Shown here one piece after another: positions 1-10,354 of a DNA stretch of 10,354 nt; within the stretch, counting starts at the first letter, position 1; each line of letters starts with the position of its first letter. The position numbers and the translations under genes are program-made. Source of the stretch: Promethearchaeota archaeon (lineage in GTDB: Archaea > Asgardarchaeota > Lokiarchaeia > Sigyniarchaeales > SOKP01); NCBI GenBank assembly GCA_019058015.1, contig JAHLWH010000223.1:1-10354 (forward strand), written 5' to 3'. Under the pieces are notes generated by a model, which worked only from the letters and a program-made list of their open reading frames with translations, was not told where the DNA came from and made no database searches.

Positions 1-2802
1 AATGTCAGTTAAAAGAAAATTAGTATTAATATCTAAAGCCTCACTATAAGAAGCATTTATTGTAATTTTTCTTTCATTAATAGGTGCATAAATATTAATG
101 TTAACTAAACCGAATCCATCAGTATATTTTGCATAAACTTCTTCTATAGAAGAGGTCCAGTAATAAATTTTAAAATTTATTGTAGCATCTCGTAAAGGTT
201 CATTAATTTCAGCTAAAGAAAAATTAAATTGTATAGAAAAAGAATTTCCTTCAATTATATTCTGGGGTAAAGAAGTTATTGTGATTAATACATTCTTTTT
301 TGCAAGAACTTCTATGTTTTCGGTGATAATGGAAGTATCATAATTAGTTTTTTCACCTTTTATTTGTAAAGTATAATTCCCTCCAATTAAAGTCCTTATA
401 TCAATTTCTTCTCTATAAACTCCATAGAACACAAAATCTAATTGTCCTTGAAATTCAGGTCTTTCAAGAATTTGCCATGTAACATATGCATTATCAATGC
501 CACTATCATGGAAAAGATCCTTAAAAAATAATGAAAGAGATGGTTTGGAACCCTCATATATTGGGGTAATTTCATCTAATATAAGTTCTGTTGGGAGATA
601 ATTAACTAGTGTAGAGACATTAGAAAAGATGGGGTTGTAGCCTTGAACTGAAATTTTTATAGACATATTTAGGTTTAGATATTCATTAATTACCCCTATA
701 TTTGTAGTATCCAAAAAAATCTCATAATACCCTCGGTCCTCGTAATTTCCAGTTGTTTTATATATTTCTGTCCAAAATAATGAATTATCTGCTAATTTTG
801 CTTCAATAAACGCATCCACTAACGGATTTAAACTTGTATTATCACAAATATATAATTTAATAAATTTTGTATTATCATCCACGTAAGGCGTATTATTTTC
901 ATAAATTAACCAAGTATTATATGTCTCATTGAAATACGCTCCTTCCACTATTGTAAAATTAGTAGATATTCCAGTAATATTCAATTGATTGAAATAATAT
1001 TTGTCTGGAAAGTTTGGTCGAATAAATATTATGCTGAGGTTATAAATCCCTACATCAATACCAATAGTCCCGACCGTAAGTATATAAGTTCCATTATTTA
1101 TGTTATTTATCAGATATTTTTTACTTGATGAAAAATCTAATCCCCATTCATGTTTAGTGTCATTATCATAAATAAATACTTCTGCATCCTTTATTGGATC
1201 ACCTCTAATCGAAGTATTATAATATATATTCATATCTGTTTCTTCACCAGGAAATAATTCTGTCTTAGGATCTTGAACCATATTAAGTTGACTTTCCCAT
1301 AAAGGATAAATATATATATCATCCAATTTAGCAGTCCAATTCATAACGTCCTTCGTATCATCAGCTGTAATGTTAAATTTGAAAGAAATTTCATAATACT
1401 GATCTATTTGGAGATCTTGAGATATATTTAATCTCAATGCATTCCAAGAATTTGAAGTTACTAAATTACTCTCATTTTTTATTAAAGTCTCATTCAAATA
1501 AATTTCTAAATTTAGATTTTTTACTCCAGTCTTGTTTAAAATTAAATAATTTAAAGCTAATTGATAATCAGTTCTTGAATTATTTTTGAGAAATGTTTGA
1601 TTTAATGCAGTCCATCCATTTGAAAGCGTTATAGTCTGATAAGATGAAGAAGTAAAAAGTTTATCGGTAAAATTATATTTAGATTGATAATTTCCTCCAG
1701 ATGTATAATTTTGCCAATCATCATCAGAATCAAAATTAGAATTTTTTAATAAATTATTAAGTGTTTTCATTAAAAAATAAACATTGTCAATACATGCAAT
1801 AAATTCTGACTCAATAATAGTATTTACACTTAGTTCTATTTCAAAACTTATCAAGTAATTTCCCCCCAATTTTATAGAATTTGGTATTTCTATTGAAAAT
1901 TTAGTTGGAGGTAATGTTGAGGTAATTTGATAAGACCAAATATTGGAATTATTAATTTTAACGGATAAGGTCGTATCATCAATACCTTCAAACGCAGATA
2001 CATTTGTTGTAAAATTTAAGAAATATGTTAGGTTATATAAATTCTCAATTGATACAGATTGATTAACATAAACTTGTTCTGTAAAAATTTTTGGTATAGT
2101 AGCGTTTGAATATGCAGCAACTAAATCTAAATTTACTTTATTAGATGGAGATCCAGGAATACTAAACAAAATATTAAAAGAATTTTGAGGCGAAGCGAGT
2201 CCACTAAGAGTTATATTAAACTCGATATTTGGTATACCTGAATAATTTCCCTGTCCGTAACCTCCAATAGGGGTTTCAGACTCATAATCATAAACTGTAA
2301 TATTCGAAGTATTTCCACTTGTTATATTTAGAGTTATTTTATCTCCGTTAGTTAAATTATCAGAAAAAAATACATCTAAATGTCTTCCATTCTTGATCTG
2401 TGCAGTAGTTGTATCATTATATAATAGCTCTGTAGTAACATTCTCAGTACTATCATAGAGGGCACTCTGAATTTGAAAATATTTTATGTATGTATCTATA
2501 TGAGGGTCGCTTGAATGGTTAAATTTTACACATTTATTACTAGAATCCCAATTTGAAGTTATATTATTACTACTAGTATAATTCCACCAAGTTATGCCAT
2601 CGTTAAAATGGGAATCTTGAAAGAGATTCATAATATCAAAAGGTGATTCTCCAAAAGAACTTAGTGGATTATTTAATGGTTGATCTGAATGTTGATGATT
2701 AGTGTCATTTTTTAACTTAATTAAATTTCCTGATAAAGTCAATAATAGTAAAGAACTAAAGAAAAACCATAGAGTAAATAGAAAAAAAATTCGCTTATTC
2801 AT
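1..2802 (-). CDS. Large secreted/cell-surface glycoprotein (partial, >=934 aa, 3' end outside window): signal peptide, CBM4/9-like jelly-roll domains, then tandem Ig-like repeats
   Basis: Hand translation from ATG at 2802 (MNKRIFFLFTLWFFFSSLLLLTLSG...) stays open to position 1 (...INASYSEALDINTNFLLTDI) with no stop, which explains its absence from the ORF track. It has a basic plus hydrophobic N-terminus. Jelly-roll-type ends are NLFQDSHF..WW...IDNVYF and NLLKNSNF..W...LDDIYI. Ig-like repeat motifs are PIKDAEV/PLVDAFI/GIDNAYV/PLRDATI and GTYIL/GYYEI/GVYRE/GNYTL. About 40 N-x-S/T sequons by hand count. Confidence 0.9.
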   Translation of the reverse strand, partial: MNKRIFFLFTLWFFFSSLLLLTLSGNLIKLKNDTNHQHSDQPLNNPLSSFGESPFDIMNLFQDSHFNDGITWWNYTSSNNITSNWDSSNKCVKFNHSSDPHIDTYIKYFQIQSALYDSTENVTTELLYNDTTTAQIKNGRHLDVFFSDNLTNGDKITLNITSGNTSNITVYDYESETPIGGYGQGNYSGIPNIEFNITLSGLASPQNSFNILFSIPGSPSNKVNLDLVAAYSNATIPKIFTEQVYVNQSVSIENLYNLTYFLNFTTNVSAFEGIDDTTLSVKINNSNIWSYQITSTLPPTKFSIEIPNSIKLGGNYLISFEIELSVNTIIESEFIACIDNVYFLMKTLNNLLKNSNFDSDDDWQNYTSGGNYQSKYNFTDKLFTSSSYQTITLSNGWTALNQTFLKNNSRTDYQLALNYLILNKTGVKNLNLEIYLNETLIKNESNLVTSNSWNALRLNISQDLQIDQYYEISFKFNITADDTKDVMNWTAKLDDIYIYPLWESQLNMVQDPKTELFPGEETDMNIYYNTSIRGDPIKDAEVFIYDNDTKHEWGLDFSSSKKYLINNINNGTYILTVGTIGIDVGIYNLSIIFIRPNFPDKYYFNQLNITGISTNFTIVEGAYFNETYNTWLIYENNTPYVDDNTKFIKLYICDNTSLNPLVDAFIEAKLADNSLFWTEIYKTTGNYEDRGYYEIFLDTTNIGVINEYLNLNMSIKISVQGYNPIFSNVSTLVNYLPTELILDEITPIYEGSKPSLSLFFKDLFHDSGIDNAYVTWQILERPEFQGQLDFVFYGVYREEIDIRTLIGGNYTLQIKGEKTNYDTSIITENIEVLAKKNVLITITSLPQNIIEGNSFSIQFNFSLAEINEPLRDATINFKIYYWTSSIEEVYAKYTDGFGLVNINIYAPINERKITINASYSEALDINTNFLLTDI

Positions 2803-2984: not shown

Positions 2985-3004
2985 TGCACTATAATTTAAG
3001 TGCA
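2985..3004. promoter_or_regulatory. Inverted repeat TGCACT-N8-AGTGCA, candidate transcription-factor operator over the putative TATA box of the sugar kinase gene
   Basis: Perfect 6-bp arms (2985-2990 and 2999-3004) in a very AT-rich spacer. They flank TATAATTTAA, which lies about 28-37 nt upstream of the ATG at 3027. Confidence 0.4.
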
Positions 3005-3026
3005 TGATTTAATTAATTACATTTAT

Positions 3027-3983
3027 ATGAGTCCGCATATAATTAGTTTAGGCGAATTATTAGTTGAAATAATGAGGATAAGTATAGATGTGCCTCATAG
3101 TAAAGTTGGTGCAAATTACAGAGGTCCCTTTCCAAGTGGCGCACCCGCTATTTTTATCGATTCTGCTACAAGGATGAGTAAGCCTTTTGGTTTTACTAAT
3201 GGTTTTATTGGAGTTGTTGGAGATGATGAATTTGGCACTTGTATTGTTGAAAAATTAAAACTGGATGGGGTAGATATTTCTCAAATTAGAATTGAAAAGG
3301 AAAAAACAACTGGAATAGCATTTAATCAATATAATTCAGATGGTTCGAGAAAATTCATCTTCGCTGCTGGAGCTGCTGGAGAAACGACCCCTAATGATAT
3401 TAAAGAAGAATATTTTAGAGAATTTAAAAATTTGCACATAATGGGCAGTGCATTATCCATCAGTAAAAAATCTAGAGAAGCCTGTTATCAGGCAATAAAA
3501 ATTGCACAGAAAGAAAATCCAGAAGTTGTAATATCATTTGATCCAAATTTGCGCCCAGAAATGCTGGATATTAAAATTATTTTAAAAATTTGTCAGCCTG
3601 TATTAGATTCTTGTAAAATCCTTCTTCCTAGAGGTGAAGAAGCGGAAATGTTGGCAGGTATAAAGGGAGAAATAAAGGCTTGCAAAAAATTATTAACGTT
3701 AGGTCCTGAAATAGTTGTTTTAAAACAAGGGAGTAAGGGTTGTACAATTTTTACCAAACAAGAAGAAATATATGTTCAAGGATTTAAAGTTGAAGAAATC
3801 GATCCAACTGGTGCTGGAGATTCATTTGGAGGTGCATTTATTGTAGGTTATTTAGCAGGGTGGGATTTAAAAAAAATTGGAAAATTTGCAAATGCAGTAG
3901 GTGCTTTAAAGGTAGAAAATTTAGGTCCAATGCCGAATACGACTTATGAGGAAGTTAATCAACTAATTCTTAAAAAAAAATAA
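3027..3983 (+). CDS. PfkB/ribokinase-family sugar kinase, resembling the tagatose-kinase-like subgroup
   Basis: Motifs include N-terminal IISLGELLVEI, GPFPSGAPAIFID, GVVGDDEFG (PfkB signature 1), SFDPNLR, VVLKQGSKG and DPTGAGDSFGGAF (PfkB signature 2 with the catalytic Asp). ATG 3027 (MSPHIISLGE) is preferred to the track's GTG 3000 because PfkB homology starts there. Substrate is uncertain. Confidence 0.92.
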   Translation: MSPHIISLGELLVEIMRISIDVPHSKVGANYRGPFPSGAPAIFIDSATRMSKPFGFTNGFIGVVGDDEFGTCIVEKLKLDGVDISQIRIEKEKTTGIAFNQYNSDGSRKFIFAAGAAGETTPNDIKEEYFREFKNLHIMGSALSISKKSREACYQAIKIAQKENPEVVISFDPNLRPEMLDIKIILKICQPVLDSCKILLPRGEEAEMLAGIKGEIKACKKLLTLGPEIVVLKQGSKGCTIFTKQEEIYVQGFKVEEIDPTGAGDSFGGAFIVGYLAGWDLKKIGKFANAVGALKVENLGPMPNTTYEEVNQLILKKK

Positions 3984-4000
3984 AAAAATTAGAATTTTTT
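3972..4000. terminator. Reciprocal oligo(T) terminator tracts at the convergent kinase/PLD junction
   Basis: Stops at 3981-3983 (+) and 3989-3991 (-) are 5 nt apart. The minus strand reads T7-A-T9 straight after the PLD stop, and the plus strand has T6 at 3995-4000 after the kinase stop. Oligo(T) termination is the archaeal norm. Confidence 0.5.
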
Positions 4001-5413
4001 ACGTTTCTGATAATTTTTAAAATAGACTGCAATTATACTTAAAGAACTTATTATGATTAATATTGAAATATCAAACCCATATATTATTGTAAATGTTGGT
4101 TTAGTAGGTCCACCAGAACCATCACCGTATATTGCGAACCACCAATCCCGGTTTCCATCAACATCACCATCATCTTGAGGTTTTGGGCAAGAGCTTCGAG
4201 CCCAATTACCACTACTTATAATTAATGTATCATTATCAATAATACAATACTTACAATGTTGAAAATCAAAAGCTTCAGAGGCCCATAAGCCTAGTGCAGT
4301 ATTATTTTTACTTGGATCATCCTTGTCAGGTATTCCAAGAACCGTTAAATTAAATAGAGACCATCTGTTATATGCCTTTTCATACATATTAACTGTATCA
4401 TTTTCAAGTAAAAGTCGCACTTTTACCCCAGCAGCAATCCTATCAAGCATAATTCCTAATAGGTAAGGATGGGATAATGTATACACACTTAAATCAATTG
4501 ATTTTTCTGCATCATTGATTAATGAAGCGACTACATCATAACAATTATCAGGAGCAACAATGCAGGACACTGTCATTTTTCCTGTATAAGTGGTAGCTTG
4601 AAAGTGATTTGTATAGGTTGATAAATAAATTGAATTTACCTTAAGATTTGATGATGCACTGCTGGGTCCAGGGCCATTATAATCATCTGCAACGTTCCAA
4701 TCATGATTGAAAAGAGTAGTATAATAACCAGCAACATCTTCACTCTCAATCAATATTGCAGCTTCTCTATTGTCCCTTAGACCAGTTGGTGAGCCATTGA
4801 TTGAAGATATTAAAACATTTTTCCCATCAACAATAATCCCTTTATTATGGAGTTGAAAATATTGTGGTGAAGTGCCGTCTATTGTTTTAACTGTTATTCC
4901 TGCATTCTCTAATGCATCGGCTGTTCCTGTTACTTTTGAATCCGTGGTCTCTTTTAAAATCACACAGCAATTTACTCCACGATCTTTCGCTGCAATAATA
5001 GCATCAACTAGGTCAGTTAAAGTATTATAAATATACATAAATTCTATGTAAAGAGATTGCTGAGCACTATCAATTAATTCAATTATTTTGGTTTCAGAAT
5101 TATCCGGAGATAAAATAGGTGTTATACTCATTGTTTTATTAACAAAATCCTGCTTTGAAAATGGTTCATAGCTACTTCCATAACGATCCCAACTTGCCGC
5201 AAAGCCTAATCCATCATTTTCTGGTACATATGCATATCCATTGCTCCAATCCTCCTCAAAAAGTCCACGGAAATAATTAATAACCTGTTGTCCAGCATTT
5301 ATTTCTCCATCTTGACTTAACTCAAGTTCGGTACAAGACACAAAAGGATTAAAACATGTTATTGAAGTAAAAAAAAGAAGTAATGATAAATATATATAAG
5401 AATTTTCTTTCAT
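3989..5413 (-). CDS. Secreted, membrane-anchored phospholipase D-superfamily protein with two HKD motifs and a Loki-CTERM-like tail
   Basis: HKD motifs are HNKGIIVD...SSING and HCKYCIID...SSGNW. PLDc_2-type starts are SPDNSETKIIELIDSAQQSLYI and APDNCYDVVASLINDAEKSIDL, with RGV/AGVKVRLLLE and NRE/GNRDW also present. There is an N-terminal hydrophobic signal and a C-terminal IIYGFD + TM helix + KRKK. Confidence 0.93.
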   Translation of the reverse strand: MKENSYIYLSLLLFFTSITCFNPFVSCTELELSQDGEINAGQQVINYFRGLFEEDWSNGYAYVPENDGLGFAASWDRYGSSYEPFSKQDFVNKTMSITPILSPDNSETKIIELIDSAQQSLYIEFMYIYNTLTDLVDAIIAAKDRGVNCCVILKETTDSKVTGTADALENAGITVKTIDGTSPQYFQLHNKGIIVDGKNVLISSINGSPTGLRDNREAAILIESEDVAGYYTTLFNHDWNVADDYNGPGPSSASSNLKVNSIYLSTYTNHFQATTYTGKMTVSCIVAPDNCYDVVASLINDAEKSIDLSVYTLSHPYLLGIMLDRIAAGVKVRLLLENDTVNMYEKAYNRWSLFNLTVLGIPDKDDPSKNNTALGLWASEAFDFQHCKYCIIDNDTLIISSGNWARSSCPKPQDDGDVDGNRDWWFAIYGDGSGGPTKPTFTIIYGFDISILIIISSLSIIAVYFKNYQKRKKF

Positions 5414-5679: not shown

Positions 5680-6327
5680 ATGGGAGGAAATGATAGTAGC
5701 AAAGTTGAATATTTAATCGAAGGAGTATGGATATTAGAAAATTTATCTGGAATATGTCTTTTTGAAGAAATTTATAGTGATTTTACTAAGGAAGGAATCT
5801 CAACCGATTTAATTACAAGTTTTTTATCGGCATTATTAGGTTTTGTAAATGAAGCTTTCACAGATGCAATACAACATATTCAATTATCAAACCGTAAAAT
5901 TTTATTCGAATTAACAAAACAAGTATTATTTGTTGTAGCTATAAACGCTAAGGCATCTGTTACTGATGCTGAAATTAAATACGCAATTCGGAAAATTGCT
6001 AAAGTATTTAATAAAAAATTTAAATCTTCTTTTAAAGATGGGAGTTGTGGTGGAAAAGTTAGTATTTTTAATTCATTCTCAGATGATTTAAGAAAAATCG
6101 TGAAAAAGGAGCCTTTAACATTAAAATTTTTAACAGTTGAGCAAGCTATAAGTAAATATCAAAAACAAATGTTAAAAACAACTCAAGGGTATTCCAAAAA
6201 AATACAAGAATTTCAAAAAACACAAATGAATGTGACAAAAGATTATTTAAAGGAAGCACGAGAACTTATGCTTTTAAGTAAAAGAGAGAAAAGAAAAAAA
6301 AAAATAGAAGAAAAAAAAGATAACTAA
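5680..6327 (+). CDS. Longin-like domain protein (Asgard eukaryotic-signature type) with a helical, basic C-terminal extension
   Basis: The pattern IEGVWILENLSGICLFE (beta-hairpin), TDLITSFLSALLGFVNE (helix), IQHIQLSNRKILFE..VLFVVAI (three strands), IRKIAKVFNKKF (helix) and VSIFNSFSDDLRKIV (helix) matches the b-b-a-b-b-b-a-a longin topology typical of Asgard longins. Recognised by eye. Confidence 0.8.
   Translation: MGGNDSSKVEYLIEGVWILENLSGICLFEEIYSDFTKEGISTDLITSFLSALLGFVNEAFTDAIQHIQLSNRKILFELTKQVLFVVAINAKASVTDAEIKYAIRKIAKVFNKKFKSSFKDGSCGGKVSIFNSFSDDLRKIVKKEPLTLKFLTVEQAISKYQKQMLKTTQGYSKKIQEFQKTQMNVTKDYLKEARELMLLSKREKRKKKIEEKKDN
6148..6255 (+). repeat. Two degenerate in-frame 18-aa (54-bp) tandem repeats in the longin protein tail
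   Basis: ISKYQKQMLKTTQGYSKK (6148-6201) aligns without gaps to IQEFQKTQMNVTKDYLKE (6202-6255): 6 of 18 identical plus Y/F and L/M similarities. Confidence 0.55.
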
Positions 6328-6353: not shown

Positions 6354-7247
6354 TTATGTAAAAAATAATGAATAAAGGGAAGGAAATTGAATAAATGGTA
6401 TAAAATGAATGAGACTTAATAAATAATACATAAAAAGTGCCCCAATTGTGAGAATAAAAATGATATCCTTCTTTTTAATAGGAATTTCTATCAGATTTGT
6501 TCGAGTTTTGTATAAACCAAAGCATCTATTTTCCATTGATATGGATGTGATATCTCCTTTTCTTAATATTGAGACCAGAATTGTGATGAGCCTTTCTTTT
6601 ATGAAATTATAAGCTTTCTTTAATGTATTCACCTTTTCTCTACCAAAACCCCTTGCCTTTTGGGCGAGTCCGATTGTTCTCGCCTCTTGTTGTATTAAAG
6701 GGATATATCGAAGTCCGACCATAAAAGCAAAACTATACTTATAAGAAACGCCGGTTTTCATCAATGCATAGACAAAATCCTTCATGGAAGTTGTATGGGT
6801 AAAAATTATTGCAGATAAGAATAAGATAAGAATCCATAATGCGTTTCTAAATGCATAATAAACGGCTAATCTTCTAATCGGTAAAAAAGTAAGATTAAAT
6901 AAATAGAATAAAATTTGAGATTCTTCATTGGGTATTGCGTTAAAGAAGATATTTAAGATTATTGAAAAGAGACTTAAGATTAGAATCCATTTAAATTTAT
7001 AAAAAAGAGATTTAATTGACATTTTGCTTGACAGCGCTAAAAAAAAGATTAATGCAAAAACAATTGAAAGAAAAATTAAGCTCTCGATTGAGAATACAAA
7101 AATCGTAAATAATATCAGGAAAAACAATTTACTTATGGGATTTAATTTATGCAAGAAAGAATTATTTGGAACATAAGAAAATAAATCCCTTGTCTTATCC
7201 AAATTGAATTGTTTCCTTTTAATTTTTGGTTTTTTGTTTTTAGTCAT
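6354..7247 (-). CDS. ecfT: Energy-coupling factor transporter transmembrane component T (CbiQ/EcfT family)
   Basis: Motifs are SFLHKLNPISK, multiple TM helices, FTHTTS, LRYIPLIQQEARTIGLAQKARG (first X-R-X coupling motif) and SMENRCF (second coupling motif). It starts 5 nt downstream of the ATPase stop. Confidence 0.95.
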   Translation of the reverse strand: MTKNKKPKIKRKQFNLDKTRDLFSYVPNNSFLHKLNPISKLFFLILFTIFVFSIESLIFLSIVFALIFFLALSSKMSIKSLFYKFKWILILSLFSIILNIFFNAIPNEESQILFYLFNLTFLPIRRLAVYYAFRNALWILILFLSAIIFTHTTSMKDFVYALMKTGVSYKYSFAFMVGLRYIPLIQQEARTIGLAQKARGFGREKVNTLKKAYNFIKERLITILVSILRKGDITSISMENRCFGLYKTRTNLIEIPIKKKDIIFILTIGALFMYYLLSLIHFIPFIQFPSLYSLFFT

Positions 7248-7252
7248 ATCTC

Positions 7253-8944
7253 TTAGATTTTTCCCAACTTTTTATTTATAATATTTAATAAAGAAATTGG
7301 CCCCAAACTTTGGTATTTTTGGAAGTATGAATAATTTTCTTCATATTCTATTAAATCACCGTTATCTAACTCAATTATTTTATCCACATGATTTAGAAGT
7401 AAATGATAATCATGTGAAGCTATAATAATTGTTTTGCCTTTTTGCTGCTCCTGATAAAGTATAGTAATTAATTCATCTATTGTTTTTTGATCTTGTCCTA
7501 TGAATGGCTCATCTAATAAAATAATTTCAGGATCATAAATAAAAATTGAAGATAAATTTAACCTTCTTTTCTGACCCCAACTAAGGTTAAATGGATTTCG
7601 ATCATATTCAACATTTCCAACCATTCTCATTAATTGATTTAAATTCTCTTCATCAATTTGATTTTGGATATTAAAATTTTTTGGGGCATATAGAATTTCA
7701 TCTCTTATTGTATTTTTAAATAGCATATTTTCGGGATTTTGAAATATGAATCCTATCTTTTCAGCATATTCATAAAAATCAATTTCCAAAAGATTTCTTC
7801 CTTTATAATATACTTTCCCCTTAGATGGATTATATAATCCAGCTAATAGGTAAAGTAATGTTGTCTTCCCGCAACCGTTATGACCAACTAATCCAATAAA
7901 ATCTCTTTTAAAGATTTTTAATGAAATATTGTTTAAAGCCATTCTATTAAGTTTAGGGTATTTAAATGAGGCATTCTTAAGTTCTAAAAGAATATCGCCT
8001 TCCATTCCGTCAGAATATTCTTTGTGGTTCATAAAATTTTCATAGAGTCTATTTTTCAATAATTCCAGATTCCTATTCGTTTCTTTATTAATCATTTCAA
8101 TAGCAGTATCAAAAAACAACGGAATTTCACGTTTTGGGGTTTTTAAAGCAGAGATAAAAAGATCTGGAATCCAAGGGATTCTTAGATTACAAGATTTTAA
8201 ATCATTGAAGTGGTTTCGAAATAGTTTATTAATTGAACCTTTAAGTGCAATTTCTCCATTATAATTTAATACTAACAAGTAATCAGCAATATCTAATACT
8301 TTAGATAACCTATGTTCAACAATTATTATGGATAAATCCAATTCTTTATTTTGATAGAGTTTTTTTAATCGATTCAATAATAAAGTGGAAGATCTCTGAT
8401 CTAAAAAGGCAAAAGGTTCATCTAAAATTAAAATTTTAGGCTTCATTACCAGGTAGGAACAGATTACAACAATTTGCTTCTCTCCTCCACTTAAATCATC
8501 AATATCTCGATCAATTAAATGCTCAATATTCATAAACTCTACTATATCATCCACTTTTTCGATTATTTCCTCCTTCGGAAGATTTAAATTCTCTAATCCA
8601 AATGAAATTTCATCTCTAACAGTAAATGTCACTAATTGCTCATCGGGGTTTTGTTTAACTAATCCCACCTTCTTTGATAATTCAGCTAAACTTTGATCCC
8701 AAACACTGAGACCGAAAACTTTTACATCTCCTTTCATGAACCCAATTTGTCTAAAAGGGATAATTCCATTTAGAGTATTGCATATCGTGGATTTTCCACT
8801 TCCACTACTCCCCGCAAGAATTAGAGTCTTTCCTTTTTCTAATTTAAAAGAAATATTTTTTACTGCAGGTCTAACACTTTTATCATTTCCATATATAAAT
8901 GTAAATCCATCAAACTCTAAGGCAAGATTGTTTTGTTCGTACAT
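7253..8944 (-). CDS. ecfA: ECF transporter fused dual ATPase (A-A', YkoD-like)
   Basis: NBD1 has GSSGSGKST, QNPDEQ, LSGGEKQ, ILILDEP and IVEH. NBD2 has GHNGCGKTT, FQNPE, LSWGQKRR, ILLDEP and IASHD. There are no TM segments, and the gene lies between the S and T genes. Confidence 0.95.
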   Translation of the reverse strand: MYEQNNLALEFDGFTFIYGNDKSVRPAVKNISFKLEKGKTLILAGSSGSGKSTICNTLNGIIPFRQIGFMKGDVKVFGLSVWDQSLAELSKKVGLVKQNPDEQLVTFTVRDEISFGLENLNLPKEEIIEKVDDIVEFMNIEHLIDRDIDDLSGGEKQIVVICSYLVMKPKILILDEPFAFLDQRSSTLLLNRLKKLYQNKELDLSIIIVEHRLSKVLDIADYLLVLNYNGEIALKGSINKLFRNHFNDLKSCNLRIPWIPDLFISALKTPKREIPLFFDTAIEMINKETNRNLELLKNRLYENFMNHKEYSDGMEGDILLELKNASFKYPKLNRMALNNISLKIFKRDFIGLVGHNGCGKTTLLYLLAGLYNPSKGKVYYKGRNLLEIDFYEYAEKIGFIFQNPENMLFKNTIRDEILYAPKNFNIQNQIDEENLNQLMRMVGNVEYDRNPFNLSWGQKRRLNLSSIFIYDPEIILLDEPFIGQDQKTIDELITILYQEQQKGKTIIIASHDYHLLLNHVDKIIELDNGDLIEYEENYSYFQKYQSLGPISLLNIINKKLGKI

Positions 8945-8960
8945 ATCTTATTCAAAATTA

Positions 8961-9638
8961 TTAACTTTTACCTAAATTTGTAATCTCATTTGTTTTAATA
9001 GTAAATATAGCTTGAGTCGCAATAGGAACGCCTGCTTTTATTAAGTAGTCCTTAATAACTTTACCTAATAAACCAGCTATAAACACACCCGATAAAAATG
9101 CAAAAATCATTGCTAATATGAATAAAGAAATATGAAGAGTAAATAATTTTCCCGAAATATACCAAAAAACAGGAACTTGAGTTATATTTCCAATTCCACC
9201 TGCAATCCCCCAACCTAATTTTGAATCTCCTTCATTAAGATGTTCCATAATAAAAAAGCCTATAAGTAATGAAACACCTTCTAATAAATTTATTCCGATA
9301 ATAATAATTCCATAAGAACCGGTTATGAGAAATTCGAGTATTCCTTTTGTAAACATGGAGATAAGAATACCGGGTTTATTTCTTGTTAAACCATAAAAAA
9401 TCGCAACCCAAATAATGTGATGTGCAGATGCTAATTGCGTTCCGCCCGTAAGAGGGTACCATACTTTTATTAATAAATCAAAGGGTATAACACTTGAAAT
9501 GATTCCTCCAAGAGTCCCAAAAATTGTTGCATAAATTAAAGTTCTAATTGAAATTCCAAATCTGCTTTTTTCAATTTCGAAATTTTCTACTCCGGTCCTT
9601 TTAAATTCTTCTTTTGTGTCTTCAAGATTTTTATCCAT
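8961..9638 (-). CDS. ECF transporter substrate-specific S component (YkoE/ABC_cobalt-like superfamily), substrate unknown
   Basis: About 6 TM helices in 225 aa. It shows RTLIYATIFG (AxxxA-like motif in helix 1), LTRNKPG..KGILEFL.G and the C-terminal SGVFIAGLLGKVIKDYLIKAGV typical of this S-component group. It sits immediately upstream of ecfA and ecfT. Confidence 0.85.
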   Translation of the reverse strand: MDKNLEDTKEEFKRTGVENFEIEKSRFGISIRTLIYATIFGTLGGIISSVIPFDLLIKVWYPLTGGTQLASAHHIIWVAIFYGLTRNKPGILISMFTKGILEFLITGSYGIIIIGINLLEGVSLLIGFFIMEHLNEGDSKLGWGIAGGIGNITQVPVFWYISGKLFTLHISLFILAMIFAFLSGVFIAGLLGKVIKDYLIKAGVPIATQAIFTIKTNEITNLGKS

Positions 9639-9647
9639 AGAGCAAAA

Positions 9648-9652
9648 TCACC
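9648..9652 (-). promoter_or_regulatory. Shine-Dalgarno GGTGA for the S-component gene
   Basis: Minus strand reads GGTGA-ttttgctct-ATG(9638), an archaeal-type SD with 9-nt spacing inside the 21-nt intergenic gap. Confidence 0.65.
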
Positions 9653-9659
9653 ATTAATT

Positions 9660-10232
9660 TTAATATACCCTAATTGCAACTGTATGTTTTGCAGTATATA
9701 TGGTATTCCAATCTGGAAATAAACTTCTATTCACTATTCCTTCTATTGGACCTCTATCCGGTTCCCCTCCCATGGGCATCCCGTTCCTCTCATATGCTAG
9801 CAAAACTAATTCAGGATTTTGTTCAACTAATGAAAAGAGGATATTTCTACTAACATATAAATCGCTCGCTTCAAATCGAAATCTTGTGGAATTGGGGTTT
9901 AAGCAATCTTCTTTATTAAAAATGTCCCATATAACCGCCCCAGAATAATTATCACTCCAAGTATTCCCAAAATCATTAATAAAATAAAATCTATGATTTA
10001 TTACTTGTTGATAATTGGATTTTAACTGAGTTAATGTAATATTGACTTCTCGTTTTACATTTCCGTATATTTTAATTGAAATTTCAGTATTACCATTAAA
10101 TTGTTGTTCTATAAATTGCAAATTATAGATTATTAATCCAATTGATGCACTTATAATTATTCCAAATAATATAAAAATAGAAAGATTCCTTTTTGATAAA
10201 AAGTCTCTAATTTTATGTTTTGAATTATTCAT
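9660..10232 (-). CDS. Membrane-anchored molybdopterin-binding oxidoreductase-fold (sulfite oxidase/MsrP-like, Oxidored_molyb) protein, apparently lacking the catalytic Cys
   Basis: Fold motifs are IKIYGNVKREVNITLTQLK, YSGAVIWDIF, RFRFEASDLY, VLLAYERNGMPM, GPI and AKHTVAIRV. The basic N-terminus is followed by one TM helix (LSIFILFGIIISASIGLIIY). The start is either ATG 10232 or TTG 10250, the latter overlapping the upstream TGA. Confidence 0.8.
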   Translation of the reverse strand: MNNSKHKIRDFLSKRNLSIFILFGIIISASIGLIIYNLQFIEQQFNGNTEISIKIYGNVKREVNITLTQLKSNYQQVINHRFYFINDFGNTWSDNYSGAVIWDIFNKEDCLNPNSTRFRFEASDLYVSRNILFSLVEQNPELVLLAYERNGMPMGGEPDRGPIEGIVNRSLFPDWNTIYTAKHTVAIRVY

Positions 10233-10246
10233 TTTGTAAATCAAAA

Positions 10247-10354
10247 TCAATTATTCTTAATGAATATAAATTTCCTTTTCCAAATTATAATTAATCCAGT
10301 TAAAAAAAACAAAATTAAAAAAGTGAAACCTAATTGATAACCTGAAATAATAGG
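10247..10354 (-). CDS. 3' end of an upstream gene encoding a surface protein with a Loki-CTERM-like sorting signal (partial)
   Basis: Hand translation from the window edge gives PIISGYQLGFTFLILFFLTGLIIIWKRKFIFIKNN*, with TGA at 10247-10249. This is an I-x-G-Y motif, a TM helix and a basic cluster at the extreme C-terminus. Not in the ORF track. Confidence 0.8.
   Translation of the reverse strand, partial: PIISGYQLGFTFLILFFLTGLIIIWKRKFIFIKNN

Follow-up and report, generated by a model that had tools for sequence, protein, structure and literature searches.

An ECF transporter cluster with sulfite-oxidase-like surface domains in Asgard archaea, and its predicted molybdenum/tungsten-pterin cargo

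Which compound is handled by an energy-coupling factor (ECF) transporter whose genes lie directly behind the gene of a sulfite-oxidase-like (SO-like) membrane-anchored protein? The question is raised by a contig of Promethearchaeota archaeon (JAHLWH010000223.1, assembly GCA_019058015.1), which in its whole length is called the window hereafter (10,354 nt, about 28% G+C; the source genome has 3.84 Mb and is 94% complete). The cluster probably encodes a group I ECF importer for salvage of the pyranopterin cofactor on which molybdenum (Mo) and tungsten (W) enzymes depend, be it the molybdenum cofactor (Moco), the tungsten cofactor or a late pterin form. Uptake of such a cofactor had been proposed in the initial annotation of the window. 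Four independent lines of comparative data speak for it, namely gene fusions, control by riboswitches, complementarity with cofactor biosynthesis in two phyla, and adjacency to moa genes; the pterin-binding protein PruR provides a structural precedent besides.

Gene order and fusions

The five genes of the cluster are all on the minus strand, and the co-orientation and the gaps of 14, 21, 16 and 5 nt given in the initial annotation were confirmed by the coordinates of the open reading frames (ORFs). In the order 5' to 3' they are:

10247-10354, minus strand: 3' end of a surface protein, 35 codons, with a C-terminal hydrophobic anchor followed by basic residues
9660-10232, minus strand: membrane-anchored, Cys-less sulfite-oxidase/PruR-like ectodomain protein, 190 aa (AlphaFold2 model and Foldseek)
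8961-9638, minus strand: S component, divergent and YkoE-like (PF09819-related), 225 aa (family profile against 5EDL)
7253-8944, minus strand: fused double ABC ATPase EcfAA', 563 aa (TIGR04520 and TIGR04521 above cut-off)
6354-7247, minus strand: EcfT (T component), 297 aa (PF02361 CbiQ, 1.2e-25)

The SO-like ORF starts with ATG at 10232 (an alternative earlier TTG is found at 10250). The frame of the surface protein is open from 10354 to the TGA at 10249-10247, and just 35 codons of it are seen because the contig ends there.

The CbiQ match of EcfT reaches 90.9 bits for a cut-off of 25 (TIGR02454 is matched at 2.9e-19, under its own cut-off), and the ATPase contains two PF00005 stretches, with 342.8 bits for TIGR04520 (ECF_ATPase_1) and 358.3 bits for TIGR04521 (ECF_ATPase_2). 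The S component is encoded beside the ATPase and T genes in all loci examined. A T component of the CbiQ/EcfT family, two ECF ATPase domains and a small membrane S component encoded with the module are the features of group I ECF transporters; the norm that these have no extracytoplasmic binding protein is broken here by a conserved or fused SO-like domain, which probably faces outward.

When 400 genomes of the phylum were searched with a profile of the SO-like protein, 70 were matched, among them 51 of the 134 in the window's family. The S gene directly follows the SO-like gene in all 29 other short loci and is itself followed by the ATPase gene in 27 of them, the remaining two being cut off by the end of a contig; of 15 longer loci, 14 have T as the last gene of the order. 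The linkage noted in the initial annotation is thereby kept, as SO-like, S, ATPase and T, in 39 Asgard genomes of four families, and because of this recurrence the arrangement cannot be attributed to chance. Across loci the identity of the SO-like protein drops to about 26%, while that of the S component stays at 40-57%. Weak SO-like matches in two further families (f16 and f18, E 1e-4 to 6e-5; none in the window's family) were excluded from the synteny counts, and no S, A or T gene was found near them (loci L048 and L049).

The linkage is strengthened by fusions of the S component with an SO-like domain (S-SO fusions), of which 296 stretches were confirmed in a scan of GTDB species genomes with an alignment of the fusion. 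Locus counts refer to the best 80 of these 296, which come from Thermoplasmata, Methanobacteriota, Bacillota (Syntrophomonas, Pelotomaculum, Syntrophaceticus and Dethiobacteria), Promethearchaeota, and Hermod- and Heimdallarchaeota. The usual fusion operon encodes a multi-domain SO-like protein (65/80 loci), a metallophosphoesterase (64/80, fused to an SO-like domain in L102), the S-SO fusion, the double ATPase and T. Such fusions argue for a joint function of the S component and the SO-like domain. As the latter follows seven transmembrane helices in the fusions, it would be exported unfolded, and loading with a ligand in the cytoplasm would not be possible.

Two irregular loci were observed. 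In L020 (G155:C344), two copies of the S component (339-947 and 2080-2739) lie on either side of the SO-like gene. In a Thermoplasmata genome with MoaC, the S-SO fusion gene is in three pieces in different frames (G410:C4:2019-3094) and may be decaying.

Cofactor biosynthesis genes and riboswitches

Presence of the cluster was compared with that of cofactor biosynthesis genes in the 135 genomes of the window's family. Aldehyde:ferredoxin oxidoreductase (AOR; AFOR_N domain) is found in 135 of 135, and MoaC, MoaE and MoeA_N, which form one gene cluster, in 66, 68 and 72. Of the 52 genomes that carry the SO-like/ECF cluster, 9 have MoaC, 9 MoaE and 10 MoeA, as opposed to 57, 59 and 62 of the 83 non-carriers. 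The family is thus divided into 42 genomes with the cluster only, 63 with moa/moe only, 10 with both and 20 with neither, 17 of these 20 being under 90% complete; when the 89 genomes at least 90% complete are considered, the numbers are 34, 44, 8 and 3. Three genomes with a weak match (G210) or a partial one (G162 and G202) were counted as carriers, which lowers the complementarity. The alternation is also seen within genera (cluster versus moa/moe: 2 versus 2 in g5; 10 versus 38, with 2 having both, in g11; 21 versus 12, with none having both, in g12). In a Thermoplasmata family of 46 genomes, where MoaC was the sole biosynthesis marker tested, 25 genomes have the fusion only, 13 MoaC only, 5 both and 3 neither. 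In five genomes of this Thermoplasmata family, three of them at chromosome level, AOR is found in all five, MoaC in one (a partial match) and MoeA in one. The opposition between cluster and biosynthesis genes, with AOR everywhere, which the initial annotation would lead one to expect, is therefore seen in two archaeal lineages.

The window's own genome has 12 AFOR_N and 3 PF00384 matches; MoaC, the MoaA C-terminal domain, MoaE, MoeA_N and MoaB were not detected in it, and its sole PF00994 protein is CinA-like. In the window's genus (five genomes, two of them 100% complete), PF13531, the family that covers ModA and WtpA, has no match in any of the five, and is matched in 14 of 14 control genomes; the only PF12849 matches above cut-off are PstS, the one examined adjoining PstC and PhoU, and no binding protein of the ModA, WtpA or TupA type was found. 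The genus has many W/Mo-pterin enzymes and no recognisable pterin synthesis, metal insertion or metal import.

In a few genomes the two gene sets adjoin each other: downstream of the cluster in G276, and in the same orientation, come a TrmO-like gene, MoaC, MoaA, MoaD, MoaE, MoeA and MoaB, and coordinates give the same adjacency in G174 and in G273-275.

In bacteria, a Moco/tungsten riboswitch (Rfam RF01055) was found ahead of the operon and on its strand in 5 of 16 loci, and in 7 of 19 when two longer Syntrophomonas operons headed by it are added, as expected if the Moco riboswitches that the initial annotation would have correlated with bacterial homologues accompany the system. It stands directly before S-SO/AA/T in one locus of Dethiobacteria (L124), and in four loci SO-like and phosphoesterase genes stand between it and S-SO/AA/T. 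The long Syntrophomonas operon encodes a surface protein with multiple SO-like domains, a purple-acid-phosphatase-like enzyme, an SLH protein, a 210-aa SO-like protein, S-SO, AA and T; the multi-SO-like surface proteins have 2503 or 1453 aa, the longer with Shr-like HID, PKD, NosD and Big_2 domains. All seven RF01055 copies span 119-122 nt for 135 model positions, and the L124 copy is without stem P3; P3-less RNAs were linked to tungsten-cofactor genes by Regulski et al. (PMC2408646). Seven of the 12 bacterial loci without the riboswitch are truncated inside upstream genes. No RF01055 was found in nine archaeal loci.

The Syntrophomonas genomes G451, G452 and G454 (behind L119, L125 and L108) contain 11-12 RF01055 copies each, some of them in tandem (G454:C28:14426-14930 and G451:C4:183438-183913, for example), in agreement with the triple arrangement reported for S. 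wolfei (PMC2408646).

These data bear on the first alternative, namely that the ECF module imports the metal only, as tungstate or molybdate, and that the SO-like domains bind or hold the oxyanion. Metal importers of the ECF type exist (CbiMNQO, NikMNQO). Moco riboswitches classically govern uptake of the modABC/tupABC type (PMC2408646), MoaC is kept in four of the five riboswitch-bearing bacteria, and the window's genus, having no ModA, WtpA or TupA, must be missing some metal route. ModABC, WtpABC and TupABC likewise serve Mo/W enzymes and belong, as the cluster does, to the bacterial Moco-riboswitch regulon (PMC2408646), but they are binding-protein-dependent type I oxyanion importers that need moa/moe, whereas the cluster is an ECF system found mostly where moa/moe are absent. 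Indeed 42 of 52 Asgard and 25 of 30 Thermoplasmata carriers are without the tested moa/moe genes; the bare metal would be unusable to them, and import of metal alone fails as an explanation there. Moreover, the known ligands of the sulfite oxidase (SUOX) fold are pterins, and the conserved phosphoesterase points to an organic phosphate cargo. Metal-only import is thus considered distinctly unlikely.

The S component and its SO-like partners

The S component has no direct match in Pfam or NCBIfam, and an exhaustive HMMER search of 1.84 billion proteins returned 65 representative clusters only at E<=1e-3. Its closer relatives are stand-alone proteins or S-ATPase fusions; the distant ones (329-459 aa) combine PF09819 (the YkoE family), one further hydrophobic helix and one or two PF00174 domains. 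When compared with the Protein Data Bank (PDB), the family profile matched the YkoE structure 5EDL at 5.2e-9. Thiamine is contacted in YkoE by Y46, W49, E77, Q95 and D131 (PMC5037267). In the profile alignment four of these five are replaced (Y46 by S71, W49 by H74, Q95 by E120 and D131 by W159) and E77 alone is kept; H74, E120 and W159 are nearly invariant in the family. Judged from these alignments, the S component is a member of the YkoE superfamily with a predicted altered pocket.

An ordinary YkoEDC-like importer of thiamine or hydroxymethylpyrimidine (HMP) with a functionally unrelated SO-like neighbour would account for the remote homology to YkoE, for the name thiamin/HMP permease that one metagenomic fusion protein bears in its source, and for the layout of fused ATPase and T, which is as in YkoD and YkoC (PMC5037267). 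YkoEDC, the group I ECF thiamine transporter of B. subtilis, is likewise an operon of a dedicated S component, a fused double ATPase and T, and both systems are riboswitch-controlled in bacteria, but by the THI box for YkoEDC and by the Moco/tungsten class for the cluster; the SO-like domains, separate or fused, are absent from YkoEDC. The residues at the four replaced contact positions are family-specific, none of the 19 bacterial loci, among which the Moco riboswitches were found, showed a thiamine pyrophosphate (TPP) riboswitch, and the S-SO fusions speak for a joint function. The S component is only a remote relative of YkoE, and the tight clustering with thiamine transporters that would have told against the initial annotation was not seen; thiamine or HMP import by this cluster is extremely improbable.

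The SO-like protein consists of a basic N-terminus, one long helix (model residues 14-46) and a domain of about 140 aa. Its match to PF00174 (18.4 bits) is under the cut-off of 24 bits, which multi-domain paralogues in related operons exceed. The sulfite-oxidase fold named in the initial annotation is borne out by an AlphaFold2 model (mean predicted local distance difference test, pLDDT, of 88, from a 44-sequence alignment) and by a Foldseek probability of 1.00 to the sulfite dehydrogenase SorA, sulfite oxidase, YedY and PruR (2ca3, 1sox and 1xdq among the matches); chicken and plant sulfite oxidase and the Moco domains of nitrate reductase were matched as well. PruR is matched over most of its length (TM-score 0.69-0.74 in Foldseek, normalised on PruR), and in the sequence profile comparison with the PDB the Vibrio vulnificus PruR 7kom came first at 8.2e-5, followed by SorA at 0.008.

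Among the 44 SO-like sequences no Cys is invariant or nearly so, and the lone Cys of the window's protein is unconserved even among near relatives (6/7). The family has invariant G57, D124 and G161 and a nearly invariant Y126. The sulfite oxidase family (SorA, chicken sulfite oxidase, YedY/MsrP) has its Moco-domain fold in common with the SO-like protein, which differs in having no conserved Cys, no dimerisation domain, no haem domain and a domain of only about 140 aa. In the window's protein, a SUOX domain of PruR size and without a conserved Cys is attached to a membrane anchor. We infer, on good grounds, that it is non-catalytic and outward-facing; the extracytoplasmic placement follows from the basic N-terminus with a single transmembrane helix and from the fusions behind seven such helices. 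A Tat-type signal (RRN/KRN motif) was also considered and dropped, most members having a single Arg.

PruR itself is described as a small periplasmic Cys-less pterin binder of the SUOX fold, in which, for Agrobacterium tumefaciens, the pterin is held between Y104 and W160 with a hydrogen bond to N102 (PMC11194511). D124-x-Y126 of the SO-like family aligns to the N-D-Y stretch (N-x-Y) of 7kom, which by its pattern probably corresponds to the pterin-contacting N102 and Y104. The SO-like protein shares the small stand-alone Cys-less SUOX fold of the Agrobacterium and Vibrio proteins (7kom, 7kp2, 7kos), and its extracytoplasmic site would be the same. In PruR the partner is DcpA, a cyclic di-GMP (c-di-GMP) enzyme with diguanylate cyclase/phosphodiesterase activity, the ligands are pterins of the monapterin type and the role is in signalling (PMC11194511); here ECF genes take the place of the partner, the proteins are anchored by a transmembrane helix or by fusion, and the context points to a Mo/W pterin.

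This kinship is one ground for a second alternative, an importer of another pterin or of an earlier intermediate: cyclic pyranopterin monophosphate (cPMP), metal-free molybdopterin (MPT), neopterin, monapterin, or pieces related to folate or methanopterin. The SO-like domain is PruR-sized and without the Cys hairpin, and cPMP is the most stable intermediate of the pathway. PruR binds non-Moco pterins in a shortened cleft (PMC11194511). The riboswitch class and the moa adjacency are, however, specific to Moco or the tungsten cofactor, and no link to folate genes was seen in the loci read. Import of cPMP or MPT fails in those carriers that are also without MoaE and MoeA. A different pterin is thus regarded as unlikely.

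The window's surface protein had been called a Loki-CTERM protein in the initial annotation. The hydrophobic anchor and the basic tail stand; the Loki-CTERM assignment is unproven, with 14.3 bits for a cut-off of 19.9 (Heimdall-CTERM: 14.5 bits, cut-off 24), and the full-length orthologue in the same genus (303 aa, L033:9248-10156) has an EB_dh/CBM9 fold: its EB_dh match is weak, and its AlphaFold2 model, of moderate quality (pLDDT 68), is NxrC/EbdC/CBM9-like with Foldseek E-values of 1e-9 to 2e-7. This protein of about 300 aa lies upstream in 8 of 16 loci. Beyond the contig end is a further conserved gene with SO-like domains, absent from the initial annotation: an anchored protein of 370-430 aa, whose N-terminal half is SO-like (hhalign 95%, 3.7e-8), is encoded upstream in 12 of 16 loci, and in other lineages extra SO-like paralogues occupy the upstream position instead.

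A third alternative is that the cluster is not an importer, and that it combines a PruR-like pterin sensor with an ABC module, or serves the maturation or export that feeds extracytoplasmic redox proteins of the SUOX fold. PruR does work in signalling (PMC11194511), and the EB_dh/NxrC-like partner resembles the haem-b subunits of Moco enzymes. On the other hand, there is no conserved Mo-ligand Cys, most carriers are unable to make the cofactor they would export, and no signalling output domain is present in the operon. To our knowledge, all characterised ECF systems are importers. We regard a role other than import as very unlikely.

The proposed uptake route

In the salvage of a Mo/W pyranopterin by the cluster, surface proteins with Cys-less SUOX/PruR-type domains, anchored to the membrane or the wall, would capture the cofactor outside the cell. 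For the window these would be the 190-aa SO-like protein and, beyond the contig end, the two-domain SO-like protein and the surface protein of EB_dh/CBM9 fold. In Thermoplasmata and Bacillota, trimming of the cargo (of dinucleotide forms, for instance) is the probable task of an extracytoplasmic metallophosphoesterase encoded in the operon. From the capturing domains the pterin would pass to the YkoE-like S component, which in many lineages is fused to such a domain, and import would be powered by the EcfAA'T module.

Such an arrangement would resemble the Isd and Shr haem relays of Gram-positive bacteria, in which anchored proteins with repeated ligand-binding domains stand beside a membrane importer. 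The 2503-aa Syntrophomonas protein has a Shr-like HID domain and several PF00174 stretches, and its neighbour is SLH-anchored. The analogy is functional and the transfer putative: the binding domain is of the SUOX/PruR type and not NEAT, and the importer is of the ECF type.

Several points weigh against this uptake. Outward topology, pterin binding, hand-over to the S component, the direction of transport and the identity and form of the cargo are points that we infer. Moco is a labile compound when free. A counterpart of the Trp that stacks on the pterin in PruR may be missing: the site aligned to the W of the GPFW motif of 7kom is E in the window and R in most members, a comparison by sequence alignment only, in which this W is the putative equivalent of W160. 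In bacteria, five loci whose upstream sequence extends over 0.78 kb or more have no riboswitch, and the retention of MoaC in four of five riboswitch-bearing genomes means that the system coexists with biosynthesis there, as a molybdate or tungstate importer would. Both systems are present together in 10 Asgard and 5 Thermoplasmata genomes, and the Asgard version of the cluster has no phosphoesterase. The Fisher p-values computed for the complementarity are descriptive only and overstate the pattern, because related genomes are not independent. Gene absences rest on metagenome-assembled genomes, though the two genus members that are 100% complete agree.

In the full-text literature (subscription papers and supplements are outside this coverage) no prokaryotic importer of Moco or the tungsten cofactor was found, and the sole uptake literature encountered deals with nematodes that obtain Moco from their diet; the main text of a 2024 survey of the S-component fold mentions neither molybdenum, pterin nor YkoE. 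The cluster is accordingly an ECF-type system, and no importer is known in prokaryotes for the cargo predicted here. In 2018, a survey of how organisms use molybdenum reported several hundred that have molybdoenzymes and no complete Moco pathway, a situation left unexplained under the term 'orphan molybdoprotein' (PMC6147048).

We are inclined, by a slight preference, to go further and to see in the cluster the first dedicated prokaryotic uptake system for Mo/W pyranopterins, in which an ECF module is combined with an Isd-like PruR/SUOX relay and, in many lineages, a phosphoesterase step outside the cell. Large groups of archaeal anaerobes and of syntrophic bacteria could then operate numerous tungsten enzymes without cofactor biosynthesis or a metal importer, and anoxic communities would trade the cofactor as a public good, an explanation for the 'orphan molybdoenzyme' genomes. 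If uptake is correct, metabolic reconstructions of Asgard archaea and Thermoplasmata, which have up to a dozen or more AOR genes, would need revision. Cross-feeding of the cofactor would become testable with a defined gene set, an extracytoplasmic capture domain would join the ECF paradigm, and the uncharacterised small PF00174 proteins of anaerobes would be given a role.

Genes around the cluster gave fewer leads. Those beyond the core (MoxR/VWA, DUF166, coiled-coil proteins, MscS, CBS and serine dehydratase) offered no functional one. An APH/RIO-like kinase is encoded near the cluster (L035:14618-15442 and L067:9290-10051, both on the minus strand; G000:C26:2425-3162), its Asgard and Thermoplasmata versions being homologous (9e-18); it is present in 44 of the 80 fusion loci and also near moa clusters. 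Its candidacy as a 're-phosphorylation' partner was rejected, as it occurs in 113 of the 135 genomes of the family, with or without the cluster or the moa genes; being independent of both, it was treated as a syntenic anchor and not as part of the system, and it marks a common genomic slot where ECF and moa clusters alternate.

Other neighbours are confined to the window's genus or to fewer genomes. In L033, of the same genus, the SO-like genes are immediately preceded, in the same orientation, by those of a class I methyltransferase and a radical SAM/SPASM protein (11354-13516, minus), a pair kept within the genus only. Two small overlapping ORFs (146 and 93 aa; L033:4585-5263, minus), which separate EcfT from the longin-like gene in two sister genomes and are absent from the window, resemble an inserted two-gene cassette. 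Apart from the cluster, the window contains the following genes:

5680-6327, plus strand: 215-aa protein with a weak longin match (Fuz_longin_1, E 0.037) and a lysine-rich coiled tail, beside the cluster within the genus only; it may be of the Asgard longin/roadblock type
3989-5413, minus strand: secreted protein with two phospholipase D (PLD) domains (PLDc_2, 8e-37), whose C-terminus is Loki-CTERM-like at 14.5 bits, below the cut-off
1-2802, minus strand: N-terminal 934 aa of a very large protein truncated by the contig end, Asn-rich, with N-x-S/T motifs and a signal-like N-terminus and no family match; probably a glycosylated surface protein
3000-3983, plus strand: kinase of the PfkB family, faintly matched by Phos_pyr_kin (E 0.018), at a distance of about 2.4 kb from the ECF genes and a neighbour of the cluster within the genus only

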